In this document: one piece after another, positions 2,899 through 49,326 of the stretch
How positions within the stretch are numbered: position 1 is the first letter of the stretch
Layout of the letters: every line of letters starts with the position of its first letter
Assembly (NCBI GenBank): GCA_024998755.1
Contig: JACEUU010000003.1
Span: forward strand, 1,291,331 to 1,355,330
Reading direction: 5' to 3'
Source of the DNA: Vampirovibrio sp.
Lineage (GTDB): Bacteria; Cyanobacteriota; Vampirovibrionia; Vampirovibrionales; JAJTHC01
Length of the DNA stretch: 64,000 nucleotides
Notes under the pieces: generated by a model
What the model saw: the letters and a program-made list of their open reading frames with translations, nothing else
The model's database searches: none
Told to the model about the DNA's origin: nothing
Position numbers and translations under genes: made by a program

Positions 2899-3032
2899 TT
2901 AACCTATTAAGCACTATAAGCCAAACAGACCCGCCTGACAAGGGGGTATTCAACCAAGATGGAAAAACGAATTCACCTTAACACCTGACAAAAAGCGGAA
3001 CTTTCAATTTTGCTCGATTTTATTGCAATTAT

Positions 3033-3256
3033 TAGCTTCAAACCATCTGCAGTTGGCAATAGGCTGGTGCGAACGTAGTGAAGCAGACCAATTAAGAAGC
3101 CCTCTTATAGCTTCCGCTCAAGCCTATTGCCAACGTGCTAGCCAACAAGTTAACCCTTGAGAGGGGATTAATAAGGGGGCGTGGAGCCCCCTTGTTTTTG
3201 CGGGGGGTGTGGGGGGTGCCCAAACGGTACCCCCCACGAAAGCCCTAGCCCGAAGC
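3033..3256 (+). repeat. Copy 1 of a 225-235 bp tRNA-adjacent structured repeat (family E): internal 13-bp hairpin plus G-run hairpins
   Basis: About 80% identical to 9418-9652. Contains the inverted repeat TTGGCAATAGGCT ... AGCCTATTGCCAA and the hairpins GGGGGCGTGGAGCCCCC and GGGGGGTGCCCAAACGGTACCCCCC. Confidence 0.7.
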
Positions 3257-3359
3257 GATTAACCCGTCCGAATTTTTTAAAACAAAAAAAAGGTCAGGTG
3301 AAAAAATGAATTCACTAAAAATTAGCACAGTAGCATCAAAAAAGGCTATAATCGGATAA

Positions 3360-4667
3360 ATGATTCAACGTTCTGTTAGAAAGAGGTATCCATCTCCTAT
3401 GTCCACATTGATTATCGACCAATTTACTACCCCACCTAGTCTTTTTCATGTGCTAATTTTAGAAGGGCAAAGCCAGTATGGGGCAAATAACCGCTTTGCG
3501 TTGGATTTAGACCAAGCCCTTCAAGCCAGAGGCCACCAAGTAACCCGTGCCCATTTTGATGATGCTACCTTCAACGACGTCATCATCAATGCCCTTCAAG
3601 GTGGCGGAACCCCGCTTAGCTTAATTATTAGCTTCAACGGCATTGCCAAAGAATTAACTATTAATGATACCCCCTTAAGCCAACTGCTTAATATTCCGTG
3701 CATTAACTACTTTGTAGACCACCCTATGAAGCAGTATAGCAGGGCAGATTTACCTATTGAACAGCACATTAATACTTATGTAGATGAAGCCCATGTGGGG
3801 TTTGCCAAACAGTTTTTATCGCAACACTTTAACGGGCTTTCGGGGTGTTTAAAACACGCAGGGGTTCAACTTAAGTCTGCCAAAAAACCGATAGCCTATG
3901 AAAAACGAGACCATCAAATATTAGTGGCGGGTAGTTATAAACCGTTTGATGCCTGTTGGGCAGACTTAACATTTGAAGGCACGCCCGTGCTAACCCAATT
4001 GCTTCAAACCATTGTGGAAGCTCAAATTGATGATCCTGAAACACCCATGGGCAGTCGGTTTCTTTCGGCGTTTGAACAAGCTGGTATGAATACCGCCTTA
4101 TTAGACAATACGTTACTATTACAGTTGTTTTTACGGGTTGAACGAGCCGTTGAAATGCATTTTCGGGGCGGATTTATTCAAGCGGCTGAAGACTTACCTT
4201 TGCTAATTGCTGGTAATGGGTGGGAAAAATTTAAGAAGCCTTCTAAGGCATGGCAAATGGTAGGGGCTCAGCAGTTTGATTGGCTATTGGAAAAAATTCA
4301 GCAAGTAAAACTGGTATGGAGCCAAGTTTATTGTTTTACCCAAGGTGGGCATGAACGTATTTTTTATGCCCAAGCTAATGGTACGGCGGTGGCTTGTGAT
4401 GATATGCCTTGGCTACGGGAAACTTATGATGATGAAAAGGAAGCCCTACTCATTGCACCCAACGATTTTACCGCAGGGGTTGAAAAAATAGGGTACTGGC
4501 TTAATGAACAACCTACAAAAAAATTAGAAGCCCTAGCCAAGGGGGGGCAAGCAGTTTGTTTGGCGAACCATACTTGGCAACATCGGGTTCTTGAAATTGA
4601 AAGTTGGGTGGAACAATATACTGCCTATCAAACCTTATTGCATCCCAAGGAATATGGCGTTTTTTAA
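3360..4667 (+). CDS. Hypothetical protein (435 aa)
   Basis: Long ORF with coding-like composition. No motif recognised. Confidence 0.5.
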   Translation: MIQRSVRKRYPSPMSTLIIDQFTTPPSLFHVLILEGQSQYGANNRFALDLDQALQARGHQVTRAHFDDATFNDVIINALQGGGTPLSLIISFNGIAKELTINDTPLSQLLNIPCINYFVDHPMKQYSRADLPIEQHINTYVDEAHVGFAKQFLSQHFNGLSGCLKHAGVQLKSAKKPIAYEKRDHQILVAGSYKPFDACWADLTFEGTPVLTQLLQTIVEAQIDDPETPMGSRFLSAFEQAGMNTALLDNTLLLQLFLRVERAVEMHFRGGFIQAAEDLPLLIAGNGWEKFKKPSKAWQMVGAQQFDWLLEKIQQVKLVWSQVYCFTQGGHERIFYAQANGTAVACDDMPWLRETYDDEKEALLIAPNDFTAGVEKIGYWLNEQPTKKLEALAKGGQAVCLANHTWQHRVLEIESWVEQYTAYQTLLHPKEYGVF

Positions 4668-4826
4668 TACCAATTAAAAAATTAAATAGTATAAACTCTT
4701 AAAACGGGAAGCCACGGAGAGCTTCCCCTACAGTCGCATTTTCGTAGGGGCTGGTCTCTGTGCCAGCCCGCTTAGATATAGCCCAAAATACGCTATTCAA
4801 AATACTATAATGGGTATAAAAAGCCT

Positions 4827-5619: not shown

Positions 5620-5717
5620 TTGTAGGGGCGGACTGCGTCCGCCCGCCTAAAGATTGACTGAAACGGGCGGATGCAATCCGCCCCGACAGGTTCAAGAATG
5701 ATTGAAAATACTATACT
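5620..5717 (+). repeat. Palindromic GTAGGGG...CCCCTAC dispersed element (family A), copy
   Basis: Two hairpins, GGGGCGGACTGCGTCCGCCC and GGGCGGATGCAATCCGCCCC, with the conserved tail TTCAAGAATGATTGAAAATACTATAC. Related copies lie at 629-730, 6262-6428, 12205-12385, 38062-38265 and 62252-62318. Confidence 0.7.
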
Positions 5718-5767
5718 AAACTTATCGGTCAGTAGGTTGCATTTCTGAAATGGCATTAGGCGTTTTA

Positions 5768-6261: not shown

Positions 6262-6428
6262 TCAATACTATAGTATTTTAAAGTATTTCTTTCTTCTGCT
6301 TCTCTGTAGGGGTGCGATTTATCGCATCCGTTTGGTGATTGAGGGGCGGACTGATGCAAAGCATAGACCGCTAGGGCTAATAAATCACGCCCCTACGAAA
6401 CAAATTATTTAAAGCACTATATTGAGTC
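6262..6428 (+). repeat. Family A palindromic dispersed element, copy
   Basis: CTCTGTAGGGGTGCGATTTATCGCATCCG ... CACGCCCCTAC with flanking ACTATAGTATTTTAAAG tails. A near-identical module is at 38062-38160 and an inverted one at 12225-12350. Confidence 0.7.
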
Positions 6429-9066: not shown

Positions 9067-9240
9067 GCCTAGTCTCCATCTAACGCTATTCAATCTTTGA
9101 ATCGGTATAAAAACCTATAAACTGCTTGATTTTCGCCCTTGAAGCGGTACACTAGAATAGTAGTTAAGCAATTCCCCTTTTAGTTTAACCCATTGCTTTT
9201 AGCAGTATGTTTTACTAAAGTTGTTTAGCTATTTAAAAAA

Positions 9241-9314
<74 letters not shown>

Positions 9315-9315: not shown

Positions 9316-9372
9316 ACTCAGAATCCAGATAGTTTGCTTAATTGCACACCATCTGGATTTTGAGTTTTTAGG
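9316..9372 (+). terminator. Rho-independent terminator after tRNA-Pro
   Basis: Hairpin CTCAGAATCCAGAT ... ATCTGGATTTTGAG followed by TTTTT. Confidence 0.55.
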
Positions 9373-9417
9373 GGATTCCAAAAGTTAATTAGCTATTTTA
9401 GCCCAGTCTGAAATTGC

Positions 9418-9652
9418 TAGCTTCAAACCATATGTAGTTGGAGACAGGCTGGTGCGAGCGTAGCGAAGCAGGGCAATTAGGGAGCCTCTTTTGCTTCCGC
9501 CCAAGCCTGTTTTCAACGTGCTAGCCAACCAATCAACCAGTTGTTCCCCTGGGGTTTCTTAAGGGGGTGGCGAACTGCCCCTTAAGCGGTGGGGGGTTGT
9601 AAGGGGGGGGCTGACGCCAGTCCCCCCTTACGCATCCACCTTAGCCCGAAGC
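9418..9652 (+). repeat. Copy 2 of the tRNA-adjacent structured repeat (family E)
   Basis: Same order of hairpins as 3033-3256. Stem differences are compensatory: C-G becomes A-T, T-A becomes C-G, and there are two G-U wobbles. Confidence 0.7.
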
Positions 9653-9697
9653 AACTATCTCTAAAAAGTCTCAATAATAGTAGGAACAGTTATACAC

Positions 9698-12083: not shown

Positions 12084-12204
12084 ACATCCTCTATTTGAAT
12101 CTATGATTATTGTTGCTTACACACTCTCTAAAGGCAATCCTCCAGTTTGAAATTGTAACAATTTATACATAATTGAATATTTCAATTCTAATATCACTTT
12201 TCAG

Positions 12205-12385
12205 ATTAAATAGCGTATCGAATGTAGTGGCGTGATTAACTAGCCCTAGCGGTCTATGCGATGCATCAGTCCGCCCCACAATCCCCAAACGGATGCGTTG
12301 CCCTGCATAGACCGCTAGGGCTAGTTAATCGCACCCCTACACAGAAAAAATTTACACTATTCAATCTTTAAAATGCTATATTACT
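12205..12385 (-). repeat. Family A palindromic element (inverted orientation, internally duplicated)
   Basis: TAGCCCTAGCGGTCTATGC ... GCATAGACCGCTAGGGCTA around GTCCGCCCC. Flanked by TTAAATAGCGT and ACTATTCAATCTTTAAA motifs. Confidence 0.65.
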
Positions 12386-13464: not shown

Positions 13465-14622
13465 GAAGTTACGGAAAAAGGGCAAGGTAAAATAGAAGGG
13501 ACATTATTCCACCTCTCATAGGATACCCCACCCCCATGACTACCTTTGCCGACATCCAAATTCAACAAGCCACACCGACTCACAAATTCCTAGAGGAAAT
13601 GAACCAAACCCTACCATGGCAACTATTTGAAACCATCCTCAAAACACACATCCACCACAAACCCAACGGCAGACCACCCTACAAACGCCTACTACTGCTC
13701 AAAATGAACCTCCTCAAAATATGGTTCAATCTCTCCTATGAACAAACCGAATTTCAATGCCACGACAGACTCTCCTTCCGAAAGTTTCTCGGCTTCTCCT
13801 TAGAATCCCCCATCCCTGAAGCCACGACACTCGAAAACTTCCAACACGAACTGCAAAACACCCCAGCCCAAGAAGCCCTTTTCTTAGCCTTAGACACCTT
13901 CTTCCAAGAGAACAACCTCATTCTTAAAGAAGGCAACTTGGTAGATGCCGCCTTTATTAAAGCCAATAGCAAACAGAGAAAAAAGCCTGAAGACCAGAGC
14001 GACCCTGATGCCACTTATGGCTACAAAGGCTTTGGTTACAGTGCCACGGTTAATGTAGATGCTAAAAGCAAGTTGATTCGCAAGGTGGTTGTTACTGGTG
14101 CCAATGTGCATGACAGTCAGAGTTTACTGCCTGTACTGGTGGGCTATGAGCAGACTGTTGGTGCGGATAGTGGGTATGTGGTTAAGGAGAAGGATTTGAA
14201 GGCGTTGGGGATACAGCCGAGGATTATTAAGCGTCGTGTTCGGGGTAAGCAGCATGAACCAACGCCTGAGTTGACGGCTTCGCAGAAGCGGTTTAATGGG
14301 TTGGTTTCTAAGGTTCGGGCTAGGGTGGAGCATGTGTTTGCGGGTTGGAAGACGGTGTTTAAGAAGGTTCGTGTGTCTTGTCGTGGGTTAGTGCGTGTTT
14401 CTGCGGAGATTTTGGGCTTGGCATTTGGGTATAATTGTCGTCGGTATGGTTTTTTGGTGAGGAGGGGGGTAGGTTTTAGTGGATTCTTGTATGGTTTTTA
14501 GGTAATTATGATCCGAAAAGAGTGGAAACAAGGGGTATTGTTCTGTTTTTTGAGCATTTTTGGTTGAATTTTATTAAAAAACACTCACTACTCCCACCTG
14601 CACACCCTTATTCCGTAACTTC
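13465..14622 (+). mobile_element. IS5/IS4-superfamily insertion sequence, copy 1 (1158 bp), 17-bp terminal IRs GAAGTTACGGAAAAAGG, 4-bp TSD TATT
   Basis: Ends defined by alignment with copies at 25586-26710 and 49327-50485. TATT is duplicated at 13461-13464 and 14623-14626. Inserted 4 bp after the rnhC stop. Confidence 0.85.
13536..14501 (+). CDS. IS5-family DDE transposase (321 aa)
   Basis: Conserved transposase of three near-identical IS copies. Intact full-length ORF. Confidence 0.85.
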   Translation: MTTFADIQIQQATPTHKFLEEMNQTLPWQLFETILKTHIHHKPNGRPPYKRLLLLKMNLLKIWFNLSYEQTEFQCHDRLSFRKFLGFSLESPIPEATTLENFQHELQNTPAQEALFLALDTFFQENNLILKEGNLVDAAFIKANSKQRKKPEDQSDPDATYGYKGFGYSATVNVDAKSKLIRKVVVTGANVHDSQSLLPVLVGYEQTVGADSGYVVKEKDLKALGIQPRIIKRRVRGKQHEPTPELTASQKRFNGLVSKVRARVEHVFAGWKTVFKKVRVSCRGLVRVSAEILGLAFGYNCRRYGFLVRRGVGFSGFLYGF

Positions 14623-23446: not shown

Positions 23447-23465
23447 ATAATCAATCATACAGTGT

Positions 23466-23555
23466 CTCTTCTTTGTCGCTACGATTCTCGATGTGCTTAT
23501 GTACGTTTGTGTACACCTCACACATCTGCGAGTCTAGACTTCTAGAATAGCCTAC
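23466..23555 (+). repeat. Family C dispersed 90-bp element, copy 1
   Basis: TTGTCGCTACGATTCTCGATGTGCTTATGTACG...CACATCTGCGAGTCTAGAC. Near-identical to 27171-27262 and related to 54298-54385 and 59218-59305. Confidence 0.65.
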
Positions 23556-23609: not shown

Positions 23610-25319
23610 ATGCTTATTATGACCGCATTTCATTCAAATCAAGCTAAAAAGATCGTCATCGTCGGAGGCGTAGCAGGAGGCATGAGTGCTGCCGCTCGTC
23701 TAAGACGCCTTTCCGAAAAAGCGGAAATCATTATTTTTGAGCGTGGGGGCTATGTGTCTTACGCCAATTGTGGACTCCCTTACTATTTGGGTGGCGAAAT
23801 TAAGGATCGTGGTAATTTATTACTCCAAACCCCACAATCTTTAGCGGCACGCTTTAATCTGGACGTTCGCGTCCTGCATGAAGTCATTGACATTCGTGCC
23901 GAAGACAAAACCGTTGTCGTTCGTTCGCTCGCCACGCAAGAGGTCTTTGAAGAAAGCTACGATGATCTTATTCTTTCCGTGGGAGCAAGCCCCATTCGTC
24001 CGCCATTGAAGGGTTTGGACTTACCAGGTGTTTACTCCCTGCGTAGTGTTGAAGATATTGATGCCCTAGACGATTGGATGAATATGCAAGACGTTAAGCG
24101 TGTTTTGGTCGCTGGGGGAGGCTTCATCGGCTTAGAAGTCGCTGAGCAATTGAAGCATCGGGGGCTAGACGTTACGCTGGTGGATTCTAATCCGCAAGTG
24201 TTAAAACCGCTGGATCTTGAAATGGCGGTGCTAATTCAAGAAGAACTAGAATCAAACGGTGTAAAACTCTTGTTGAACGCTCCCTTAAAGGCGGTTCACG
24301 ACCCACAATCGCATCAAGATGCTGAGCAAGAGGCTCCTAAGGTCGGGTGGGTTGAAGCAGGAGACAATGCCCTTATCGCAACGGACTTATTGATTTTAGG
24401 CTTGGGCGTGCGTCCTGAAACGGCACTCGCTCAAAAGGCAGGCGTTGCCCTTGGCGAGCGTCGGGGAATTAAGGTTTCGCCCAGTATGGAAACGAACGTC
24501 CCTCATATTTATGCGGTAGGTGATGCCATTGAAGTCTTGCATCCGATTAGCGGTCAGCAAACCCTTATTGCTTTAGGCGGGCCCGCCAATCGACAAGGGC
24601 GTATTGTGGCGAATTCGATTATGGGCTTGCAAGATGCGTATTTGGGGACTTACGGCACGGCGATTTTGCGTGTCTTTGAGTTGACGGCGGCATCCACAGG
24701 TTTGAATGAAGCCCAATTGCAAGGGATGTTCTTCCCTTATGAAGCGATCCACTTGCACCCTATGCAACATGCAGGATACTACCCAGGTGCGGAAAAGATT
24801 GCCTTAAAAGTCTTGTTTAATCCTAAAACAGGTGAGCTTTATGGCGCTCAAGCCGTCGGAAAAGACGGCGTTGACAAACGCATCGATGTGATTGCCACGG
24901 CGATTAAAGCCCGTTTGACCATTCGAGACCTCGCCGAGCTGGAACTCTGTTATGCTCCGCCCTTTGGTTCCGCGAAAGATGCCGTCAATTTGGCTGGCAT
25001 GATTGGCGAAAACATTCAAGACGGCTTGCTTGAGCAGGTGCAATGGCATCAAGTGGCAAACCTTTCCAAAACAGACACGGTTTTGCTGGATGTTCGCAGT
25101 CTCGCTGAACGCAAGAAGGGATGTATTGCGGAAAGCGTGCATATTCCCTTAAATGAATTACGTCAACGCCTGAATGAATTGCCAAAAGACAAAACCCTTG
25201 TGGTCTATTGTCAAAGTGGGCAACGTTCGTATTTTGCGACTCGACTGTTGGTGCAACATGGCTTTAAAGCCAAGAATCTTTCAGGTGCTTATATGACGTA
25301 TGTAGCAAATTGTAAATGA
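23610..25319 (+). CDS. CoA-disulfide reductase family flavoprotein with C-terminal rhodanese domain (persulfide reductase-like)
   Basis: FAD site GGVAGGMSAA, redox Cys in SYANCGLPYY, second dinucleotide fold GGGFIGLE, C-terminal rhodanese CQSGQRS. Confidence 0.85.
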   Translation: MLIMTAFHSNQAKKIVIVGGVAGGMSAAARLRRLSEKAEIIIFERGGYVSYANCGLPYYLGGEIKDRGNLLLQTPQSLAARFNLDVRVLHEVIDIRAEDKTVVVRSLATQEVFEESYDDLILSVGASPIRPPLKGLDLPGVYSLRSVEDIDALDDWMNMQDVKRVLVAGGGFIGLEVAEQLKHRGLDVTLVDSNPQVLKPLDLEMAVLIQEELESNGVKLLLNAPLKAVHDPQSHQDAEQEAPKVGWVEAGDNALIATDLLILGLGVRPETALAQKAGVALGERRGIKVSPSMETNVPHIYAVGDAIEVLHPISGQQTLIALGGPANRQGRIVANSIMGLQDAYLGTYGTAILRVFELTAASTGLNEAQLQGMFFPYEAIHLHPMQHAGYYPGAEKIALKVLFNPKTGELYGAQAVGKDGVDKRIDVIATAIKARLTIRDLAELELCYAPPFGSAKDAVNLAGMIGENIQDGLLEQVQWHQVANLSKTDTVLLDVRSLAERKKGCIAESVHIPLNELRQRLNELPKDKTLVVYCQSGQRSYFATRLLVQHGFKAKNLSGAYMTYVANCK

Positions 25320-25585
25320 AATAAGATCCTCGTCTAGGCAACTATCCCGAAAATTCTAAAGAAGGCTAAACACTGTTAACAAAGGGTTAACTTGAGCCCG
25401 TTTTTAGGGGGCTGTCTTCAAAAAGCACATAATGGGTATTTTCTGTGTCAAAACAAGCCGTTTTTTTCGTTATGTAGTTCGTCTACACGCCTCAAAAGCC
25501 GTTTGTTTTTCCTTGAAATTCCACCATTCTTGACTATTTGAAGACAGCTCCTAATAAAGGCAAGTGCTATGATAGACAAGAAATG

Positions 25586-26710
25586 AAGTTACGGAATAAG
25601 GGTGTGCAGGTGGGAGTAGTGAGTGTTTTTTAATAAAATTCAACCAAAAATGCTCAAAAAACAGAACAATACCCCTTGTTTCCACTCTTTTCGGATCATA
25701 ATTACCTAAAAACCATACAAGAATCCACTAAAACCTAACCCCTCCTCACCAAAAAACCATACCGACGACAATTATACCCAAATGCCAAGCCCACAATCTC
25801 CGCAGAAACACGCACTAACCCACGACAAGACACACGAACCTTCTTAAACACCGTCTTCCAACCCGCAAACACATGCTCCACTCTGGCCCTAATCTTAGAA
25901 ACCAACCCATTAAACCGCTTCTGCGAATCCGTCAACTCAGGCGTTGGTTCATGCTGCTTACCCCGAACACGACGCTTAATAATCCTCGGCTTTATCCCCA
26001 ATGCCTTTAAATCCTTCTCCTTACCCACATACCCACTATCCGCACCAACAGTCTGCTCATCGCCCACCAGTACAGGCAGTAAACTCTGACTGTCATGCAC
26101 ATTGGCACCAGTAACAACCACCTTGCGAATCAACTTGCTTTTAGCATCTACATTAACCGTGGCACTGTAACCAAAGCCTTTGTAGCCATAAGTGGCATCA
26201 GGGTCGCTCTGGTCTTCAGGCTTTTTTCTCTGTTTGCTATTGGCTTTAATAAAGGTGGCATCTACCAAGTTGCCTTCTTTAAGAATGAGGTTGTTCTCTT
26301 GGAAGAAGGTGTCTAAGGCTAAGAAAAGGGCTTCTTGGGCTGGGGTGTTTTGCAGTTCGTGTTGGAAGTTTTCGAGTGTCGTGGCTTCAGGGATGGGGGA
26401 TTCTAAGGAGAAGCCGAGAAACTTTCGGAAGGAGAGTCTGTCGTAGCATTGAAATTCGGTTTGTTCATAGGAGAGATTAAACCATATTTTGAGGAGGTTC
26501 ATTTTGAGCAGTAGTAGGCGTTTGTAGGGTGGTCTGCCGTTGGGTTTGTGGTGGATGTGTGTTTTGAGGATGGTTTCAAATAGTTGCCATGGTAGGGTTT
26601 GGTTCATTTCCTCTAGGAATTTGTGAGTGGGGGTGGGGTATCCTATGAGAGGTGGAATAATGTCCCTTCTATTTTAACCCAAAATTACCTTGCCCTTTTT
26701 CCGTAACTTC
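25586..26710 (-). mobile_element. IS5-like element copy 2 (inverted, 1125 bp, internally deleted variant), TSD AAAT
   Basis: Same terminal IRs. AAAT at 25582-25585 and 26711-26714. Relative to copy 1 it carries a ~50-bp 5' deletion, a 10-bp insertion and a 2-bp deletion that truncates the transposase. Confidence 0.8.
25735..26607 (-). pseudogene. IS5-family transposase, truncated at both ends (290 aa)
   Basis: Lacks the first ~30 aa, and a 2-bp deletion near the 3' end creates an early stop relative to copies 1 and 3. Confidence 0.65.
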
Positions 26711-27133: not shown

Positions 27134-27170
27134 TACTTATTCACCAATTCTTAGTTTAAATAGCTTCTGG

Positions 27171-27262
27171 TATCTTCGTTGTCGCTACGATTCTCGATGT
27201 GCTTATGTACGTCTCTGTACACTTCACACATCTGCGAGTCTAGACTCCTAGAATCCACCTCT
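27171..27262 (+). repeat. Family C dispersed element, copy 2
   Basis: About 95% identical to 23466-23555. Followed by ACGTTATTCAATCTAAGAATGGGG (family B-like end motif). Confidence 0.65.
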
Positions 27263-27361: not shown

Positions 27362-29542
27362 CTAAAGCTTCTTCCATTTAAGACGTAATGCGTTAAGCAC
27401 AACGCTGACGGAGCTTAACGACATGGCTACCGCCGCAATGATGGGCGAGAGTAAGATGCCAAAAGCTGGATAAAGTATCCCCGCCGCCAAAGAAACCCCA
27501 ACCCCGTTATAGACAAAAGCAAAAAATAGATTTTGACGAATGTTTCGCATTGTCGCTTTGGATAAGTGAATGGCGGTAACTAGGTCTTTTAAATCCCCAC
27601 GAAGGAGCGTAACGCCTGCACTTTTCATGGCCACATCGGTCCCAGTTCCCATAGCAATACCCACTTCAGCAGTTGCCAGTGCAGGCGCATCATTAACACC
27701 ATCTCCTGCCATTGCCACAGAATGCCCTTTATCTTTTAGGGTTTGAACAATGCGGCTTTTGTCCTGAGGAAGAACGTCTGCATAAACCTCATCAATCGCA
27801 AGCTGCTTTGCAACGGCTTTGGCTGTGGTTTCATTGTCCCCAGTCAGCATGACGACACGAAGCCCTAACTGATGCAGTGCTTCAATAGCTTGCGGTGTGC
27901 TGGCTTTAATTGGATCGGTAACGGTAAGGAATCCGGCCAAGTCTGAGCCAATCGTCATAAAAACGACCGTTGCACCTTGGTTGCGGTACGTGTCAGCCTT
28001 TTTCTTTTGTTCCTCTGGCAACATAACCCCAACATCCTAGAGCAGGGCTTGATTACCCAAAGAAACCTGCTTGTCTTCTAACGAACCCGTGACCCCTTTG
28101 CCTGTTATCGATTTAAACTGTTTTACCTGGGTTAGGGTCAGCTGTTTTTTTAATGCCTTACGAACAATCGCTTCACCCAGTGGGTGCTCACTGCTTTGCT
28201 CTAAGCTTGCCGCTAAACGGAGCATTTCAGGTTCGGTAAAAGATTCAAGAGAAATGATGCTGGTTAAAACAGGATGGCCTTCTGTTAGGGTACCTGTTTT
28301 ATCAATGACTAACGTATCCACTTTTTCCAGGACTTCGAGAGCTGAGGCGTTTTTAATCAGGATTCCCAATCCAGCCGCGCGACCCATCCCAACCATAATA
28401 GACATAGGAGTAGCCAAGCCCAGGGCACAGGGGCAAGCAATAATAAGCACAGAGACGGCGGCAATTAATCCGTAGCTGAGGCCCTGAGTTTCTGCAAAAA
28501 GCGTCCACGCAACAAAGGCAACTGCTGCGATGAGTAAAACAATGGGCACAAACCATGCGGCCACTTTATCTACAACCCGTTGGATGGGTGCTTGGCTCAG
28601 CTGTGCGTCGGCCACCATTTTCACAATCTGAGACAGCATTGTATTGCTGCCAACTTTTTGAGCCCTGATGACAAGAGTGCCTTTGGCATTGATGGTTCCA
28701 CCAATAACCCCATCACCGACGCTTTTTGCAATAGGCATAGGTTCCCCAGTTATCATGGCCTCATCAACGTGGCTTTGTCCTTCAGTAACTTCACCATCCA
28801 CTGGGATTTTCTCTCCTGGACGGATTCGTAACAGATCACCAAGAACAATGGACTCAAGAGGAACTTCTTCTTCAGCCCCATCCTGTAACCGTCGAGCGGT
28901 TTTCGGAGCCAGATTCAACAGTGCTTTAATCGCTCCGCCAGTTTGCTCACGGGCTTTTAATTCCAAAATTTGCCCCAATAGTACCAAGACAATGATCACA
29001 GCCGACGCTTCGAAATAGACTGGAACGGTGCCGCCCGTCTGAAACGACGCTGGAAAGCTTTGAGGCGTTATAGTTGCCACAACGCTATAGAGCCAGGCAA
29101 CACCAGTGCCAAGAGTAATCAGAGTAAACATATTGAGTGACTGGTTAATAAGCGACTGCCAGCCTCGCCTAAAAAATGGCCATCCCGACCAAAAAACAAC
29201 TGGCGTAGCCAATGCGAATTGTATCCACGTTGAAAGCGTCTGCTCAATGAAATGAATATTGAATAAATGGTTCCCCATCTCTAAAACCAGAAGAGGAACG
29301 CTCAGCACCAGCCCCACCCAAAATCTTCGACTAAAATCAAGGAGTTGAGGACTTTTACCTTCTTCCTCTCCTGTGACAGTTTCAGGCTCAAGCCCCATGC
29401 CACACTTGGGGCAGATTCCAGGGCCTTTATGTTCGACTTCAGGGTGCATGGGACAGGTGTAGACAACCGTGCCTAGATCAATCCCAAAGACATCATCAGA
29501 GGTGGTTTTTTTTGTTTTGGCGTCATGATTGCAACAGTCCAT
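27362..29542 (-). pseudogene. copA: Copper-translocating P1B-type ATPase interrupted by an in-frame TAG
   Basis: N-terminal CPMHPEV/CPKCGM metal-binding site, CPC, DKTGTLT, and [10 protein letters not shown] hinge. The two ORF-track pieces (28037-29542 and 27362-28024) are in the same frame, separated only by the amber codon at 28037-28039 (...[15 protein letters not shown]...). Confidence 0.8.
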
Positions 29543-31945: not shown

Positions 31946-31990
31946 AACGCCCCCGTTGCGATTGCGAAAGTTGCGAAAGTTGCGATTTTA
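31946..31990 (+). repeat. Tandem 9-bp repeat GTTGCGAAA/GTTGCGATT (about 4 units) upstream of the SIR2 gene
   Basis: CGTTGCGATTGCGAAAGTTGCGAAAGTTGCGATTTT, seen directly. Confidence 0.6.
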
Positions 31991-34900
31991 CCCTTCCTGT
32001 TTTAAAAACTGGTGGGCTTTTTGGTTTGCTACAAGGTTTGAAATTCGTTATAATACTTCTATTCTCGTTAATGTTTATAATGAAAGCTTATCATTGTTGA
32101 AATTTATACAACACCCCGCAGATTTACCGCCTGAATTACTGCAAGCCTATCAAGAACAAAAGCTCATCTTCTTTTGTGGGGCGGGGGTTTCCAACTATGG
32201 TGAGGAAATAGATAGCCATTACCATTCATTTGATGAATTATGTAGAGCCGTTTTAGATAGGTTTGATTTATCTTGGGAGTATAGACAATCCAATCTTGCC
32301 CAACAGTTGTATATACAACAAAGGTACGATGAATTACTTGAATATATGGTGGCACAGTATGGTTCTAAACAATTAAATGATTTTATTCAGCAATTGTTTA
32401 CAGAGCCACCAGCCCGTTTGAATTGTTCTCAGCATCAAACTATTTTAAAGTTGGCAAGTGGTGTAGGTGGTAGAATTGTAACCACTAACTTTGATACGTT
32501 ATTTACCAACGCACAGGAGCAATTACCTGAAAGTAAGCGTTTTAAAAATTTGTATGCACCTACCCTACCTATTGCTAGAGAAGAGCATTGGGAAGCGTCT
32601 TCTATTGTGTATTTGCATGGGGGTATGGAAGATACCAACCCCAAAAAACGACTAATTTACAGGAGTTCATGCTTTGGACAAGCCTATATTACTGATGGGT
32701 GGGCTGCCCGTTTTATTACAGAATTAGTGCAACATTTTCATCTTTGTTTTGTGGGTTATAGCATTAACGACCCTATTATGAATTATATGATGCAGGCTAT
32801 TAAAGTAAACGAAAAGAAACACTCTTGTCGTCGTTTTGTATGTCATGTTTCTGATTCGTTTATAGCTGCTAAAGAAGCTCAAACATTATTCAAAATTAAA
32901 GGGGTTGAACCAATAGCATTTAATACTTATCTTGATATGTGGAAAATACTGGATGAATGGCATGCCTTACAGCAACAAGATATTATTACTTTATGCCAGC
33001 AAGCATTTCAGTTGTTTGATCCTAAAGCCAACACCTTAATCCCTGAACAACGTTACGTCATTCAGCATCTAATCACTAAAGAAGAAAAAGAGTTTCGAAA
33101 ACTGGTAGAAGCGGTTACCGCAAAACAACTGCCCATAGGGTTGCTATATGCCATTGGACGCATCGATACCTTACAACGGATGGATAAAAGTGAACGAAAG
33201 AGAAAAAGCCAAGAGGCTGAAACGGATTTCGCTTTGTTTGATACGTTACCGAACTTAATCCAACCAGATTTTAAGCCAAACTGTTCGAATCCTTCATTTA
33301 GCCAATACGGGTACTTGTTTAGTCCAGCCAGCCAGCCGTTACACCCAGTAGCTTCTATATGTGCAACGCTTATTTGTCAAAACATCCATCAACCTGAAGT
33401 GTTGATGTGGGTATTGGAACAAAACGATGGTGGTTATTTAGCTCCATCTTTGGTGAATCAACTTAGTATTGCTTTACAGTTTTCTCAACATGAAGCCATG
33501 CCTGAAGGGCTGAAAAAGGGGTGGGAGCTTTTGTTGTTGAATCAACGGCTATTGCCTCGGGCAATTTCGAATGGGTTTGATTGTTTACCAGATGACCAGT
33601 TACAAAACAATACGCTTGCAACCCGTACCTATTTTACGCAAAAATTACGCCCTTACTTAAAGCTAACACCGCCTTATTACTATCGATTTTTTTTAGAACA
33701 GGATGATGAAAACAATCAACCCCTAGTTTACTATGAAGCAAAAATTGAATTTCAACAAAAGGATTTAACCTTTCACGAACTTGAAAAATGTAGCGAACAA
33801 ACAACAGACCCTGAGATGTTAATAGCGTTAATGGGGATTATTGAAAATACGGTGCATCAGTACTTACAATTGTTTGCTGAAATTGAAAAAGATGAGAGCT
33901 TTATACGTCTTTTTGAAATACCTTCTATCATAAGGCATGGACAAAATCAGGGTTATAGGCAGTTACCGCAGTTGTTTGCTGTTATAGAACTTTTGTTGGA
34001 CAAATTGGTTAAACAAAAAGTAGGCTGGTGTAATCAAACGATGGAACGCTATGCACAACAACCGCATACGTTATGGCATAGAATGGTATTAGCCTACACC
34101 ACTAAATATGAATTAAACCTAGAACCTGCATTGGCACTATTACGGGCTAATCAATACGCTTATATAGAAGTATTTAGCAGAATTAAAAAAGAATTTTATG
34201 AATTGCTAGAATATAAAGCAGACCGATTGCCTGATGATATAAGGCAAACTTGTTTTGAACTGTCACGCCAACCATCGAGAGATTATCAACAACACATTGA
34301 AGTAGGATGGGATAAAAACGAAAAATACAATGTGTTACGGTTGTTAAAAGCTCAAGGTATTGCGTTACCTGATGAAGCCTTAGAAACAGTGTATCAAACC
34401 TTATTGGAAGAACGTCAACAGTATCAACAGGCAGAAGACGCTACAGACCAATTCAAGTTTAGTGCTTATTCTACAGGGTTTACACGGGTTCAGCCCGATG
34501 CGATACCTGAAGAATTAAACGAAGGAAAAACTGACGCTGCGTTATTTGCGTACTTTAAAGGGGAGGGGGTTACCCATCGTTACCACTTGGATTTAGAAGA
34601 AACCTTCAGAGCATTTGTAGAAAAATACCCTGTACGGGCGTTTAATCAAGTATTTAAACCGTTATTGAATGAAAATGCTGCTCAATATAGCAAACTTTAT
34701 TTACGAGCGTTTGATTGGGGATTAGCTGCTTATATTGAACCCATCCATTCTTCTCCTAAGCAATCAGAACCTGAAGCATCGCCTCCTCCTCTGGTTACCC
34801 TACCAGATTTATGGACGTTAGTAGAATCGTTTTTTATGCTTGATACCGTGCATGATACCTGTCAAGCCCTTTACAGTAGTACCGCTTTTATTAGGAAGCA

Positions 34901-36011
34901 GTATAGAGCCTTATGGCAGGAAGATACCCATCGGTTTTGGCGGTTTTTTGAAATGGTGTGGCAACGGGCGGTACAAAAACTAGCCATTAGCGAGCAGAGC
35001 CGTCCAGATTTTTTATCTGATGCTATTAACGCACCCATTGGCAGATTAGTGGAAACATTATTGGATTTAGAACTTCAACGGTTGAATGAGAACCGTATTA
35101 GCACATTATTACCTGAAACGATTACTTATTTAGAAAGTATCCCCACCCTAGAAAACGGTACAATGTTGTACAGCCTGCTAGGTAGCAATTTAGCTTTATT
35201 GCTTAAAATGCACCTTGTTTGGACGGAAACACAGTTGATACCCCTACTAACTTCCACCACAGAACCTGAAAAAACCAAAGGGCTTGCTCTTTCAGAAGGC
35301 TTAATTGGCTATGGGCAGTGGACTGATTTAGTTCACAATCATTTAAAAGAATCGTTACTACAGTTAGATATGGGTGTTCATTTCAACGAACAGAGAGACT
35401 ACCAATTATTTAACAACTATGTATCTCGTATATTGGAATCTTATTTTGTTCCTCAGAATGAAGCACCTGATGTAGAAAAAATAACGCTGATAGAATTGCA
35501 CGCATGGTTGGCTTCCTTACCAACGCCAAAAAGTTTGGATTGTGTGGCTAGAGAACTGGTTGTATATTACAAACAGGTTTCTGTTGATGAAGCTGAAACG
35601 TTGATTGAACAGTTTTTAGCACCACTACTAACGAAGGGGTGGGTTAATACGGTAGATAAAAGAACCCCTCAGCAAACCAGTTGTTTTTTACAACTTGCAT
35701 TGGTGCATCCTAAGTATTTTGGTAAAATTATCAGCATCGTGAAAGAAGCAAACTTGATACTACGCTTACCTGATGAAGCCACATTCCATGATTTGTGTTT
35801 TTATTGGCTTGAAAAAGAACAGCTAGAAGCCTTAGCCCTAGAAGATTTTGAGTTATTTTGCAATGTAATATTAGATTATTTACCCCTGCAACCAATTAAT
35901 ACGAGTACGTATTTATTACAAGAATACTTGTATAAAAGGTTATTAGCACAGCAAACATATCCATTACCGAAAGCATTGGAAGCGTATTTTACTAGAATGT
36001 TACGCAACTAA
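31956..36011 (+). CDS. Defence-associated sirtuin (DSR2-like): N-terminal SIR2_2 NADase domain plus ~1000-aa helical C-terminal region
   Basis: SIR2_2 motifs in DSR2/ThsA order: KLIFFCGAGVS, IVTTNFDTL, IVYLHGG, CFVGYSINDP. The ORF-track start lies in a tandem repeat. The real start is probably TTG near 32094 (LKFIQHPADLPP...). Confidence 0.8.
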   Translation: MRLRKLRKLRFYPSCFKNWWAFWFATRFEIRYNTSILVNVYNESLSLLKFIQHPADLPPELLQAYQEQKLIFFCGAGVSNYGEEIDSHYHSFDELCRAVLDRFDLSWEYRQSNLAQQLYIQQRYDELLEYMVAQYGSKQLNDFIQQLFTEPPARLNCSQHQTILKLASGVGGRIVTTNFDTLFTNAQEQLPESKRFKNLYAPTLPIAREEHWEASSIVYLHGGMEDTNPKKRLIYRSSCFGQAYITDGWAARFITELVQHFHLCFVGYSINDPIMNYMMQAIKVNEKKHSCRRFVCHVSDSFIAAKEAQTLFKIKGVEPIAFNTYLDMWKILDEWHALQQQDIITLCQQAFQLFDPKANTLIPEQRYVIQHLITKEEKEFRKLVEAVTAKQLPIGLLYAIGRIDTLQRMDKSERKRKSQEAETDFALFDTLPNLIQPDFKPNCSNPSFSQYGYLFSPASQPLHPVASICATLICQNIHQPEVLMWVLEQNDGGYLAPSLVNQLSIALQFSQHEAMPEGLKKGWELLLLNQRLLPRAISNGFDCLPDDQLQNNTLATRTYFTQKLRPYLKLTPPYYYRFFLEQDDENNQPLVYYEAKIEFQQKDLTFHELEKCSEQTTDPEMLIALMGIIENTVHQYLQLFAEIEKDESFIRLFEIPSIIRHGQNQGYRQLPQLFAVIELLLDKLVKQKVGWCNQTMERYAQQPHTLWHRMVLAYTTKYELNLEPALALLRANQYAYIEVFSRIKKEFYELLEYKADRLPDDIRQTCFELSRQPSRDYQQHIEVGWDKNEKYNVLRLLKAQGIALPDEALETVYQTLLEERQQYQQAEDATDQFKFSAYSTGFTRVQPDAIPEELNEGKTDAALFAYFKGEGVTHRYHLDLEETFRAFVEKYPVRAFNQVFKPLLNENAAQYSKLYLRAFDWGLAAYIEPIHSSPKQSEPEASPPPLVTLPDLWTLVESFFMLDTVHDTCQALYSSTAFIRKQYRALWQEDTHRFWRFFEMVWQRAVQKLAISEQSRPDFLSDAINAPIGRLVETLLDLELQRLNENRISTLLPETITYLESIPTLENGTMLYSLLGSNLALLLKMHLVWTETQLIPLLTSTTEPEKTKGLALSEGLIGYGQWTDLVHNHLKESLLQLDMGVHFNEQRDYQLFNNYVSRILESYFVPQNEAPDVEKITLIELHAWLASLPTPKSLDCVARELVVYYKQVSVDEAETLIEQFLAPLLTKGWVNTVDKRTPQQTSCFLQLALVHPKYFGKIISIVKEANLILRLPDEATFHDLCFYWLEKEQLEALALEDFELFCNVILDYLPLQPINTSTYLLQEYLYKRLLAQQTYPLPKALEAYFTRMLRN
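32026..32054 (+). promoter_or_regulatory. Sigma-70-like promoter: TTGCTA - 17 bp - TATAAT
   Basis: The -35 at 32026-32031 and -10 at 32049-32054 with exact 17-bp spacing. A 6-codon out-of-frame uORF (ATG 32080, MKAYHC) overlaps the likely TTG start at 32094/32097. Confidence 0.5.
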
Positions 36012-36555: not shown

Positions 36556-36862
36556 AGACACCGAACATTGTGCGAAGCCTCCACAACAGAACGGCTGGTT
36601 ATGGTATTCTCTATCCAAAGCGGTGGCATGACAGTTTGATTGAGACCCTACAATAGCTGTGAAATCTGAGAAGACTTGTAGAGAATTCAAGCAAAAGGTA
36701 GAGTCTACAGGACGTTTTTTCGGCTATATTACGGCTACTTTTTGGCTATGAAAGCAACGAATCCATCAAGCTAAGCCATCAAAAAACCCTGACAAAGGCT
36801 TGCTTATTTCATCCGTATCGGGTAAAATCGGGTATAATCAGGTATGTTATCGGGTATTTTTT

Positions 36863-37918
36863 ATGAATGAAGTCACACTTTCTTTATCTTCCGACCTTGT
36901 CAAACTCATTGCTGAGATTGACGAGTTTAAAGGGCGTTGGGATGCCTTAAAAGTTTTGTCTCCTGAACGCTTGAATGCCTTAAAACATACGGCAACTATT
37001 GAAAGCATTGGCTCTTCCACCCGTATTGAAGGGGTTGCCTTAACAGATGTTCAAGTAGAAACATTACTTTCTAACCTGCAAATGACCTCTTTTAAAAGCA
37101 GAGATGAGCAAGAAGTGGCGGGTTATGCCGAAGCGATGGATCTGGTGTTTCAAGCCTATGCGGAACTTCGCCCCACGGAAAACCATATCAAACAACTGCA
37201 CCAGCTTTTATTGAAACACAGCTCCAAAGATGACCGTCACCGTGGACAGTATAAAACACTCGCCAATCACGTTGTGGCGAAGAACGCTCAAGGTGTTGAA
37301 GTAGGCATTGTTTTTGAAACTACCACACCCTTTGACACCCCCCGTGAAATGGAAGAGTTGGTGCATTGGCTTAACAAGGCTATTCAGGAAGAGAGTTTTC
37401 ATCCGTTGTTGCTCGTGGCGGTGTTTGTCGTGTGTTTTCTTGCCATTCACCCTTTTCAAGATGGGAATGGTCGGTTATCCCGTGTTTTAACAACCTTACT
37501 GCTCTTGCGGGCGGGCTATGCGTATGTGCCTTATGCGTCTTTGGAACATGTGATTGAAGAAAATAAGGATTTATATTACAAGGCGTTACGCCGTACGCAA
37601 TTGACCCTCAACTCAAGCCAACCCGATTGGGAGCCTTGGCTGGGATTCTTTTTGCGTTGTCTAAAAAAACAAAAAGACAGGCTTCAACAGCGATTGGATA
37701 AGGAACGCCAAACCTCTAGCATAGATGAGGCACTGCCGTCCTTGTCTATAGAAATTTTAAAACTGCTAAGCCTTCATGAACGGTTGACCATTGCGGAGAT
37801 AGTGGGACTTACCAACGCCAACCAAAACACCCTCAAGGTAAGGCTTCGGGAGTTAGTGGCACTCGGTCGAATACAGCGTTTTGGCAAGGCCAGAGCAACT
37901 TGGTATAGATTGGCATAG
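36863..37918 (+). CDS. Fic/DOC family protein (AMPylation fold) with C-terminal winged helix
   Basis: Fic motif HPFQDGNGRLSRVL and C-terminal wHTH LTIAEIVGLTNANQNTLKVRLRELVALGRIQRFG. Start taken at MNEVTLS. Confidence 0.8.
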   Translation: MNEVTLSLSSDLVKLIAEIDEFKGRWDALKVLSPERLNALKHTATIESIGSSTRIEGVALTDVQVETLLSNLQMTSFKSRDEQEVAGYAEAMDLVFQAYAELRPTENHIKQLHQLLLKHSSKDDRHRGQYKTLANHVVAKNAQGVEVGIVFETTTPFDTPREMEELVHWLNKAIQEESFHPLLLVAVFVVCFLAIHPFQDGNGRLSRVLTTLLLLRAGYAYVPYASLEHVIEENKDLYYKALRRTQLTLNSSQPDWEPWLGFFLRCLKKQKDRLQQRLDKERQTSSIDEALPSLSIEILKLLSLHERLTIAEIVGLTNANQNTLKVRLRELVALGRIQRFGKARATWYRLA

Positions 37919-38002: not shown

Positions 38003-38055
38003 TTTATTTCGCTATGCCTACCGACACCCTTTTATCTTGGAGATTGTGTATCAAA
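38003..38055 (+). repeat. 50-bp direct repeat, right flank of the Fic cassette
   Basis: TTTATTTCGCTATGCCTACCGACACCCTTTTATCTTGGAGATTGTG. Confidence 0.6.
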
Positions 38056-38061
38056 CCCATT

Positions 38062-38265
38062 CAAAGATTAAATAGCGTAAGTTTTCCTCTGTAGGGGTGC
38101 GATTTATCGCATCCGTTTGGGGATTGTGGGGCGGACATGATGAATCACGCCCCTACATTCAACACGCTATTTAATCATTGAATTGGTATAATACAGCGTG
38201 GGTGAAATCGTTCGCCTATTTCCCCTATATTCAACACGCTATTTAAACTTGGAATTGGTATAAGC
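38062..38265 (+). repeat. Family A palindromic element plus tandem family B end motifs
   Basis: TCTGTAGGGGTGCGATTTATCGCATCCG...CACGCCCCTAC followed by two copies of ATTCAACACGCTATTTAA.C.TTGGAATTGGTATAA spaced 71 bp apart. Confidence 0.65.
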
Positions 38266-47295: not shown

Positions 47296-49326
47296 TTAGT
47301 TTATTTCTGGCAGTATTAACGGGCATTCATGGGGCGCCACTGCTCGTGATAATAGCTCATCAAGTTCAAGGTTGACGCTGGCAGCAAAGTCTTCGGGTTC
47401 TTTGCTAAACGGCTGGTGAATATAGAACGGCCCTTCGGTTGTGTCACCGTCGACCAGCACCAACGCCAAAATAAACTTTTCCTTTTGGTTTAGTCCGTAC
47501 AAAATCTCGTTACGGCTCACGGTTATGATGCTTCCATCTTTTTGTCGCCCTTTTACTTCAATGTGCCGCTCTAGGGGTAACACCATGCGACCATCTGGCA
47601 AGCATTGCCTGCCTGGCCGAGAGGTGATATCCCAGCCCACCTTATCCGCTGAGACATCTGTCACTGTATGCCCCAAGGCTTCTTCTGCCAAAAGTACAGC
47701 TTGCATGGCCAATTGTTCCACACGCAGGCGTGCCAACACATCAACGGGAGGGGCTGGCTTGCCCTGTTGTTTTGCTAGGAACCCTGCAGGAATAATCAAT
47801 GCCCCACCTACAATAATAGGCGTGGCAGAAACCACATGGCGCATGGCATTGAGTTCTTTGGTACGTTGCTTCAGTCTGGCAACCAGTTCGTCCATGGTTC
47901 GGCGGGCATTTTCTGGCTGCATACGGGGTTGTTTTCCGGCTTCCATATCTTCTTTCAGTTTTATGTAGCGATCCTCCCAATAGCCAATTTCCTTTGCCAA
48001 CCGTTCATGCACAGCCGCCAGTGTTTTTTCAACCAAATGCTCACGCAGTTCTTTTATCTCGCTGTAATGCTCTGGTACCAGTTGGGTAGAAGCGTAATTT
48101 AATGCCAATTGCTCCAGATTTTGCGTGAGCCAAGGCTGTTGTAATAACTCCTGAACCAAGAGCTGTTGATGCTCATCCAAGGCTTCATAATCCAGATGTG
48201 GCCCCCATCCTGCAAACGTCGCCTTGCCATCTGGAGTAATTTCCACAAACTGAATTCGACGAGAGAGTGTCCGCTTGCCGTCGTCGTCGTTACCGTCTTT
48301 CACCGCTTGGTCTATTAGAAACATCATGCGGGGCGTTTCGCCAGCATCATTGGGATCTAACAAAACAGCACCCTGTTTTAAGTGGTTGCGAGACTGTTCC
48401 AGAATCAAGTCTACAAGCGACTGCATTAGCGGGTGTCCCGGATGAATCAAGCTGGCTTTGGGCTTATTACGAAGATCAATTTCCTTCTTTTCAAAGCAGA
48501 TGCGCTCGTACTTTAAAACCACAGGGTTACGGTTCGCCCGATTTCGTCCTGATAAAACACGATCACGCTCGCGAATGATGCCTGGTACATGACTGATTTC
48601 AAAACGACCTGGTTCACGCGGCTTTAAATCGCCACCCAACTGAGCAAAGGCTTTTTGGAAAAAAGCACGAATAAAGTAAGGCTGGAGCTTTCGGGCTTCT
48701 GCCTTGTCCATTTCTTCTTTCACCTGAAACAATTGCTTTTCTGAAAAAATCTGTTCACATAATGCATCATTGTCAATAAGCTTTTGCAAATTACTTGTAT
48801 CCAGTGCACCAGAGACTTTTTCATCTTGCCTAGCCAGAACTTCTGGGTCATCGCCATAGCGAATAGCTTCAACCAGCACATCCTTAAGAGAGACACCTTG
48901 AAAAACCTTGCCTAGAATGTCGTAAACGCGACCGCCTAAAGCTTTTCGTTCTATCTCCAGCTTGTTAAACAAGGTTTGAAAGACATGACCTTCTGCTGTT
49001 TCACCAGCTAAAAGATTCCATAAATGGCAGATCTGTTTTTGCCCTATGCGGTGTATACGTCCAAAACGCTGTTCCAATCGATTGGGGTTCCAAGGCAAAT
49101 CATAATTGACCATTAGATTGGCATTTTGCAGGTTTACCCCTTCCCCTGCAGCATCTGTTGCCACTAAAACACGGGTTTCAGGATCATTACGAAACAGCTC
49201 TTGCGCCTTGCACCTATCTTCACGCTTGGTCCCCCCGTGTATTTCAATGACCGCTTCCTGTTTGCCTAACAGGGTCCGAATACGATCTGTCAAATAGATA
49301 AGCGTATCCCTGTGCTCTGTAAAAAT
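47296..49326 (-). pseudogene. SNF2/DEAD-type helicase C-terminal half with C-terminal DUF3883 (restriction-endonuclease-like) domain; N-terminal motor half lost at the IS junction
   Basis: Helicase motifs IV-VI ([33 protein letters not shown]) and DUF3883-like tail GWDITSRPG...IEVKGRQ. The first 40 codons of the track ORF ([19 protein letters not shown]...) are read-through into the IS terminus, not helicase. Confidence 0.75.

Follow-up and report, generated by a model that had tools for sequence, protein, structure and literature searches.

The 64,000-nucleotide stretch of Vampirovibrio sp. DNA analyzed here (contig JACEUU010000003.1, positions 1,291,331 to 1,355,330, hereafter the window) contains two copies of a single interspersed repeat, with a full copy at 2977–3300 (copy 1) and a degenerate copy at 9409–9656 (copy 2), both on the + strand. 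The repeat belongs to a lineage-restricted, high-copy, non-coding family with a unit of ~325 bp, and is very probably a relative in kind of the miniature inverted-repeat transposable elements (MITEs), with a + strand that must fold. A preliminary description of the window had noted two ~80% identical copies, and these are real by each method applied: MAFFT aligns them with a mean column identity of 80%, a BLAST comparison of the two yields E = 3.7e-30, families D5 and D12 of a repeat finder correspond to the two copies, a hidden Markov model (HMM) of the family matches them with E = 6e-70 and 3e-64, and a covariance model (R1) scores 90.7 bits for copy 1 and 105.2 bits for copy 2. The shared core covers 3025–3264 in copy 1 and 9410–9660 in copy 2. 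Searches of the 64 kb with the family HMM and the covariance model found no third copy. The extent first given for copy 1, 3033–3256, is indeed repeated but covers only the interior of the unit. When the copies are aligned with their flanks, similarity reaches ~55 nt beyond this interval on the left and ~45 nt on the right, and comparison with ~40 related copies sets the ends of the full 324-nt element at 2977 and 3300. No open reading frame (ORF) of at least 50 amino acids overlaps either window copy, and the insertions and deletions that distinguish copies ignore any reading frame.

Related copies were found with a 22-nt pattern, GCTGGTGCGANCGTAGNGAAGC, which represents the most conserved part of the element and was scanned over one genome per bacterial species. 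The scan returned 38 stretches (designated by L numbers below), 37 of which come from one metagenome-assembled genome (MAG), Candidatus Melainabacteria bacterium (JAPLIO01, Lac Pavin). This MAG holds 41 exact core matches on its 37 stretches, plus further fragments, and its copies are 75–88% identical to window copy 1. Its ribonucleotide reductase gene has 87% nucleotide identity to that of the window, and the MAG is therefore a relative of the window's organism and not the same genome. One copy, with a core that differs at a single base, was recovered without the pattern, and a scan of JGI metagenomes with the core pattern added one further contig from a freshwater metagenome. A match in a Patescibacteria MAG (L057) was rejected, as it has nothing in common with the family outside the 22-nt pattern. 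BLAST of the full element against plasmid and phage collections gave no match, and a 16-mer scan of viral contigs gave 22 matches, all with dissimilar flanks and attributable to chance. Across the whole window only three tRNAs pass Rfam gathering thresholds, and permissive Rfam 15 scans of both copies yielded chance-level hits only, with no model reaching E = 0.08.

The evidence that the element must fold comes from covariation among its copies. We aligned 28 clean copies without reference to structure, and RNAalifold predicts for the + strand of this alignment a consensus of 63 pairs in 12 helices, in which a 14-bp stem closing a three-way junction is followed by a small hairpin, a G/C hairpin, and a 3′ G-rich domain. 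Standard pairs occupy 96.8% of the pair cells, compared with 91.4 ± 0.3% after shuffling. Both sides have changed in 17 of the 63 pairs (10.9 ± 1.6 shuffled) and in 101 cells (32.7 ± 4.9 shuffled), and none of 500 shuffles reaches any of these three values. Sliding the 3′ partners by 1–3 columns leaves 38–55% paired and 4–7 pairs changed on both sides. Selection on secondary structure, which had been proposed from the two window copies, is thus borne out by covariation among 28 copies that lies far above both controls. Helices 2–6 are 98.5–100% paired and include 9 pairs with both sides changed, and helix 8, the G/C hairpin, includes 4. In the last hairpin, the three innermost pairs appear as GCC/GGU, GGU/ACC, GUU/AAC, UGC/GCA, and ACC/GGU, and helix 5 appears as AG/CU, GG/CC, and AC/GU. 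The two variable positions of the core occur only as A..T or G..C (at columns 49:55, 23 copies have GC and 5 have AU, with no mixed combination).

The same pattern can be followed from one window copy to the other. The long stem of copy 1 is perfect over 14 bp, one more than the 13 bp counted at first, and pairs GTTGGCAATAGGCT at 3052–3065 with AGCCTATTGCCAAC at 3121–3134. In the equivalent stem of copy 2, 9437–9450 with 9504–9517, a C-G pair has become A-T, a T-A pair has become C-G, and two pairs have become G·T, changes that can be read directly from the sequences exactly as they were initially reported; the G-run hairpins reported alongside them are present as well. The + strand of each copy folds better than its shuffles, with z = −5.9 for copy 1 and −3.4 for copy 2.

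Most copies in the alignment have 0–2 broken pairs, at ~10% divergence from the consensus at paired sites. Changes private to a single copy number 0.29 per paired column and 0.44 per unpaired column, and among the 37 private changes in paired columns 19 keep the pair and 18 break it. The 18 that break pairs indicate that individual loci decay. Copy 2 is an example of this decay, with 6 of the 63 consensus pairs broken and the T tract gone after its terminator-like hairpin. The most economical reading of these data is that the fold is required in those lineages of the element that continue to propagate.

The structural constraint acts on the + strand only. Folding of the consensus gives −70.5 kcal/mol on the + strand and −32.3 kcal/mol on the − strand, the + strand is the better fold in 27 of the 28 copies, and G·U wobbles fill 156 cells compared with 14 for A·C. 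Strand-biased mutation was considered as a source of the G·U excess and rejected: polymorphic C/T and G/A columns are equally frequent among unpaired (29 vs 29) and paired (25 vs 25) positions, and mutation bias is therefore not the cause of the strand specificity.

Copy 1 begins with a terminal repeat and an A/T-rich leader, continues through the 5′ three-way-junction domain, the small hairpin, the terminator-like hairpin, and the 3′ G-rich domain, and closes with a trailer and a second terminal repeat, all given here on the + strand. The 5′ terminal inverted repeat, CTTAACACCTGAC at 2977–2989, is of the kind we call type A and is a 13-mer common to many family copies. A putative weak promoter-like site follows at 3010–3038 (TTGCTC, a 17-nt spacer, and TAGCTT). 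The 5′ domain at 3052–3134, in which the 14-bp stem closes the three-way junction, comprises RNAalifold helices 2–6 and is captured by covariance model R1. It contains the near-invariant 22-nt core, GCTGGTGCGA[A/G]CGTAG[T/C]GAAGC, at 3063–3084, the segment with the 41 exact matches in the MAG. The terminator-like G/C hairpin and its T tract, GGGGGCGTGGAGCCCCC TTGTTTTTG, lie at 3174–3200, where they were reported by a terminator scanner, and the 3′ G-rich domain at 3200–3256 (helices 9–12) consists of an outer stem, GCGGGGGG/CCCTAGCCCG, around the hairpin GGGGGGTGCC-CAAAC-GGTACCCCCC. The 3′ terminal inverted repeat, GTCAGGTG at 3293–3300, is shortened relative to the family consensus GTCAGGTGTTAAG, with its final 5 nt missing, and pairs with 2982–2989 in the whole-element fold. 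Copy 2 has kept the core, by its sequence a G..C variant at 9448–9469, and has no recognizable terminal repeats; its 5′ flank is a module that also occurs in L026. The 3′ G-rich hairpin domain is also found alone, joined to other 5′ sequence (GGTGGACGGAACGCATCGGCA...), in L034 (93–182), L037 (4474–4576), L056 (2424–2524), and L033 (2014–2066), and the repeats are therefore apparently assembled from exchangeable modules.

The ends of the element resemble those of a DNA transposon. Full copies have 13-nt terminal inverted repeats of two types, type A copies starting with CTTAACACCTGAC and ending with GTCAGGTGTTAAG, and type B copies starting with TACGCTTCCTAAC and ending with GTTACGAAGCGTA, and hybrids combine the 5′ end of type A with the 3′ end of type B. 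The 13-mer CTTAACACCTGAC, with at most 2 mismatches, opens many family copies or closes them as its reverse complement. Several MAG copies, like copy 2, are without recognizable ends. Direct repeats flank a subset of copies. In copy 1, AAAAACGAATTCAC at 2963–2976 abuts the element on the left and matches AAAAATGAATTCAC at 3302–3315 on the right at 13 of 14 positions. We scored such repeats against a control made of mismatched 5′ and 3′ flanks (n = 812 pairs, with a 99th percentile score of 10 and a maximum of 12). Among 29 true flank pairs, 6 exceed the 99th percentile of this control, where 0.3 would be expected, and 8 exceed the 95th. Copies that retain both termini have clean repeats directly abutting them, with lengths of 9 bp in L033, 10 bp in L037, 8–10 bp in L041, and 7–8 bp in L028. 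Longer repeats occur at window copy 1 (14 nt), L046 (15 nt), L045 (26 nt), L039 (36 nt), and L031 (51 nt). In some of the stretches L031 6773–7160, L039 7360–7760, L045 7060–7440, L046 130–500, and window 2957–3315, the repeat runs into the copy's own terminus. Terminal redundancy of the kind left by rolling-circle replication was looked for as a match of the 5′-end consensus in the 3′ flanks and was not supported, with a mean score of 7.5 compared with 7.9 in controls.

The distribution of the copies is also that of a mobile repeat. All 43 copies examined are intergenic, and they lie in either orientation, opposite to their upstream neighbor in 19 cases and the same in 14, with 15 of each relative to the downstream neighbor. 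This random orientation led us to reject a cis-regulatory or host-terminator role as a general explanation. Two gene blocks are common to the window and the MAG, with no copy at a comparable site in either, and the sequence beside the shared ribonucleotide reductase gene differs between the two genomes. Copies are themselves hosts to other elements, being interrupted by an IS630-type element or its MITE in L034 and L061 and by an IS5-type element in L028, L029, and L059 (in the 3′ part), and a 33-nt insert is carried by L028, L037, and L042.

We considered the insertion sequences (ISs) in this material as mobilizers. The IS5-family IS of the window was rejected, as its ends, GAGGTTACGGAAAAAG, differ from those of the element, and the ends of the IS630-family element in L061, TACCAATT..., differ as well. 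No multi-copy ORF near the copies presents itself as a candidate transposase. The IS5-family IS is present in three window copies that are 97–99% identical (13475–14622, 25583–26676, and 49338–50487) and encodes a 321-amino-acid transposase with DDE_Tnp_1 and DUF772 domains; it is the same IS that occurs in L028, L029, and L059. A second family of small inverted repeats, with ends TACCAATT...AATAGCGT, occupies window positions 4663–4699, 9069–9110, 12188–12264, 27143–27173, 38047–38263, 52868–52997, and 55601–55644. An end of this type adjoins the IS630-family transposase (DDE_3 plus HTH_33) in L061, and ends of this type are inserted inside copies of the element studied here in L034 and L061.

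The element is short and without an ORF, has terminal repeats and flanking duplications, and occurs in many intergenic copies in either orientation, all of which make it MITE-like. A structured MITE was among the possibilities raised in the preliminary description, and it is the one that fits best. Bacterial MITEs are similarly smaller than ~400 bp and non-coding, with terminal inverted repeats, flanking direct repeats, many intergenic copies, and long stem-loops (Delihas 2011, PMC3184786). By definition, the element is MITE-like, showing all structural hallmarks of the class save an identified parent IS. It departs from bacterial MITEs in having two types of terminal repeat plus hybrids, in having flanking repeats of 8–51 nt instead of a fixed length, and in its interior, which is a multi-domain fold with an invariant 22-nt core and not merely a long imperfect palindrome. 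In addition, its cognate IS was not found in the sequence searched.

The form in which the + strand folds is suggested by several features of the copies. Some pairs are G·U in most copies, namely columns 190:243 (23 of 28), 198:239 (24 of 28), and 32:107 (15 of 28). A T tract, defined as at least 5 T in the 8 bases after helix 8, is present on the + strand in 27 of 28 copies and on the − strand in 8 of 28. The leader carries a −10-like TAnnnT in 27 of 30 cases, and in 18 of 30 a −35-like hexamer, matching at 4 or more of 6 positions, lies 16–18 nt upstream. In copy 1 the scanner reports 3174–3193 plus GTTTTTG as terminator-like, and the order of a G/C hairpin and then a T tract on the + strand is that of a predicted intrinsic terminator within the element. 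The G·U-rich pairs, the T tract, and the TAnnnT of the leader favor RNA. Judged from these signals, the likeliest reading, with about an even chance, is that the + strand is transcribed into an RNA of ~160 nt from a weak internal promoter (TTGCTA, 17 nt, TAGCTT). The putative RNA would comprise the junction domain, with the invariant 22-nt core inside it, and would end at the conserved hairpin and U tract, and the element would need it for its own maintenance or spread. The DNA of the element would be moved in trans by a putative transposase that would recognize the terminal repeats. It would land in intergenic DNA, with neighboring tRNA genes as bystanders, and the lineages still propagating would be those with a + strand that still folds.

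The nearest parallel is the bcr1 repeat of the Bacillus cereus group, which is dispersed, MITE-like, flanked by direct repeats, and transcribed, and in which compensatory changes keep a multi-stem RNA structure (PMC3184786). It is the closest functional analogue of the element, with no relationship in sequence expected. It differs in being ~155 bp long, in its fixed 5-bp direct repeat, and in its occurrence in Firmicutes, and transcription of the element described here is putative.

Several observations weigh against a transposase-mobilized repeat that depends on its own folded RNA. The promoter-like site is weak, matching 7 of 12 consensus positions and falling below the threshold of a consensus scanner. 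The 3′ domain lies beyond the putative terminator and yet is constrained on the + strand, so that a 160-nt RNA alone would be insufficient. The length of the flanking repeats varies between 8 and 51 nt, and copies with the long ones have a truncated 5′ or 3′ terminus, a pattern unlike that of a classical DDE transposase with a fixed stagger, and about half of the copies are without a clear duplication. The 64-kb window and ~250 kb of MAG sequence surrounding the copies yielded no autonomous element with matching termini. Finally, all copies come from what are essentially two related genomes, and a single conserved 22-mer served to retrieve them. The relatedness of the copies inflates the cell counts given above, and the retrieval makes the invariance of the core partly a matter of ascertainment.

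An alternative is that the folded + strand is single-stranded DNA (ssDNA), and that the element spreads through a strand-specific ssDNA intermediate as do IS200/IS605 elements, REPINs, and rolling-circle elements. We consider this unlikely, and the same holds for its corollary that the hairpins serve for recognition or priming, much as a single-strand origin does. The constraint is strand-specific, as such an intermediate would have it, and the whole copy 1 unit, with its ends paired, folds equally well with DNA parameters (z = −6.1) and RNA parameters (z = −5.9). The G..C variant of the core includes GCGAAGC, the sequence of a very stable DNA mini-hairpin, which is a lead only. The hairpins of REPINs, formed in ssDNA, show compensatory changes of a similar kind (PMC3116915), and TAGCGA in the core matches the CS-6 motif TAGCGT of ssoA at 5 of 6 positions (PMC4598088), a weak lead only. 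This part of the core lies at 3072–3084 and 9457–9469, and in copy 1 the motif reads TAGTGA. However, elements of the HUH type lack both the terminal inverted repeats and the target duplications that are present here. Pairs that are G·U in a majority of copies would be comfortable in RNA and costly in DNA, T tracts conserved downstream of a G/C hairpin are signals of transcription, and no HUH, Rep, or RAYT gene was seen among the proteins of the 64-kb window that were scanned.

REPINs themselves are non-coding units that replicate within a genome, in which compensatory hairpin changes are common and selection acts on the replicating entity (PMC3116915), and compensatory change in a replicating hairpin unit is what they share with the element. 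Their architecture is different. A REPIN is a doublet of palindromes of ~20–40 nt, ~70–110 nt in total, tied to RAYT and without terminal inverted repeats or target duplications, whereas the element has 325 nt, several independent hairpins, terminal repeats, and duplications, and no RAYT gene was seen in the window. Membership in the REPIN or REP-RAYT group was rejected on this difference, together with the lack of a Y1/HUH transposase among the window proteins scanned. Derivatives of IS200/IS605 (PATEs and TnpB/IscB guide-RNA modules) were likewise rejected in view of the terminal repeats and duplications of the element, no conserved motif, such as the fixed 4–5-nt one used for IS200/IS605 insertion, abuts its ends, and neither copy matches an Rfam model.

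A further possibility, which we hold to be quite unlikely, is that the family is a mobile small-RNA gene, in which the ~160-nt RNA of each copy, expressed from that copy's own promoter, is needed for spread by an unconventional insertion route. Such a route, new to bacteria, could depend on RNA or on a single strand and could give duplications of 8–51 nt and imprecise ends, in place of ordinary DDE cut-and-paste.

The copies could also be host genes for a multi-copy small RNA (sRNA) that is kept for use by the cell and not a selfish element, a reading to which we assign little probability. Like sRNA genes with an intrinsic terminator, the element has a promoter-like site, a structured region of ~130 nt, a G/C hairpin with a T tract, and covariation on one strand. 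The covarying structure, the invariant core, and the conserved promoter-like and terminator-like signals would all be at home in such a gene, and singleton changes are somewhat rarer in paired columns, where 19 of 37 keep the pair. In contrast to sRNA genes, the element has no Rfam match and occurs in dozens of copies with transposon-like ends, and its expression is putative. Terminal repeats, flanking duplications, and truncated or interrupted copies are not what a host gene would be expected to have, nor are copy positions that differ between genomes whose genes are 87% identical. The other 18 private changes break pairs, the ends, the T tract, and 6 pairs are gone from copy 2, and the family is confined to one lineage.

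Spread through an RNA intermediate with reverse transcriptase supplied in trans, in the manner of short interspersed elements (SINEs), is highly improbable. It would cover the RNA-type constraint on the + strand fold, the internal promoter-like signals, the variable flanking repeats of 8–51 nt, and the truncated termini that go with the long ones. However, truncations affect both ends and not chiefly the 5′ end, terminal inverted repeats are a feature of DNA transposons, there is no A-rich or other priming tail, and neither the window nor the sequence beside any copy encodes a reverse transcriptase. Variable duplications do not call for reverse transcription, as the DNA transposons IS1634 and IS1549 already make duplications of 8–514 bp (PMC2266710).

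IS1634 and IS1549, which are related to IS4, produce these target duplications by a mechanism that is not known (PMC2266710), and long duplications of variable length are the only point at which the element, with its 8–51 nt, resembles them. Both are autonomous ISs of 1.5–2 kb with ends of the form C-----YT (PMC2266710). Membership of the element in this group was rejected, since CTTAACAC and TACGCTTC do not fit this form and no transposase of the type was found.

Lastly, the idea of a link to tRNA genes, in which the element would be a processing signal, be co-transcribed with the tRNA, or act as attachment site for an integrative element, is almost certainly wrong: both window copies do lie ~80–130 nt from a tRNA gene, but only 4 of the 37 MAG stretches contain one, the nearest at ~1 kb from a copy. 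ARAGORN places tRNA-Cys at 2826–2899 on the − strand and tRNA-Pro at 9241–9314 on the + strand, beside the copies as the preliminary description had stated. Its suggestion of a role in tRNA processing or as an attachment site does not survive the count in the MAG, where 0 of 41–42 copies are within ~1 kb of a tRNA; whether copies always neighbor tRNA genes was the check it had proposed, and their distribution is unrelated to tRNAs, an outcome that it had listed as refuting. In the window itself, copy 1 is upstream of tRNA-Cys and divergent from it, with a promoter-like TTGTCA, 17 nt, TATAGT (2941–2913) between the two, and copy 2 is downstream of tRNA-Pro with a strong hairpin and T run in between. 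The flanking repeats are unique local sequence and not tRNA 3′ ends, and there is no integrase nearby. The tRNA adjacency of the window copies is coincidental. The hairpin downstream of tRNA-Pro, at 9316–9366 (ACTCAGAATCCAGAT...ATCTGGATTTTGAGT) and followed by TTTTT, stands directly after the tRNA and is probably its terminator.

The genome around the element is densely populated by small repeats. Besides the families described above, the window contains a palindromic repeat type, GTAGGGG(C/T)G..ATT..CGC, at 6302–6396, 12224–12341, and 38087–38156, and a 75-nt repeat unit with the hairpin GGGCGGATGCAATCCGCCC at 657–731, 5648–5722, and 62249–62323. An 85-nt direct repeat, 93% identical between 23464–23548 and 27170–27254, lies upstream of a gene of the CoA-disulfide-reductase/rhodanese type (23610–25319) and beside a heavy-metal P-type ATPase locus, and may be a shared regulatory region. 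The ATPase, at 27362–29542 on the − strand, is divided between two adjacent ORFs, one with the E1-E2 ATPase and HMBD domains (28037–29542) and one with the HAD domain (27362–28024). This division suggests that the gene is a pseudogene, contains a frameshift, or was misread in sequencing. The window also carries an Hma defense system on the − strand, with HmaC at 41517–44348, HmaB at 44368–47277, and HmaA at 47296–49446. The HmaA ORF matches only positions 516–1173 of the 1176 in its profile, and its N-terminal half has apparently been cut off by the IS5-family copy at 49338–50487. Next to this system are further genes of defense type, encoding a 1351-amino-acid Dsr1-like SIR2 protein (31956–36011), SoFic (36800–37918), a 995-amino-acid SMC/AAA protein with Ppl- and Lmu-like matches (38533–41520), and a restriction-modification specificity subunit (50893–51990).

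Structured interspersed repeats that covary are known from few bacterial groups, such as those with bcr1 and REPINs. The element adds a clear case, with an unusually elaborate and well-supported fold, from the Melainabacteria, a poorly studied group that does not photosynthesize and is sister to the cyanobacteria, and the family is new to Rfam and to plasmid and phage collections. Its presence has practical consequences: the elements break MAG assemblies, with many copies at contig ends, and can pass for sRNA genes or for islands linked to tRNAs. For the genomes that harbor them, the elements bring terminator-like hairpins, and possibly promoters, into intergenic regions. The duplications of variable length bear on the unexplained behavior of IS1634 and IS1549, and the family as a whole offers a test case for whether bacterial elements that are not autonomous depend on a form of themselves as RNA or ssDNA.

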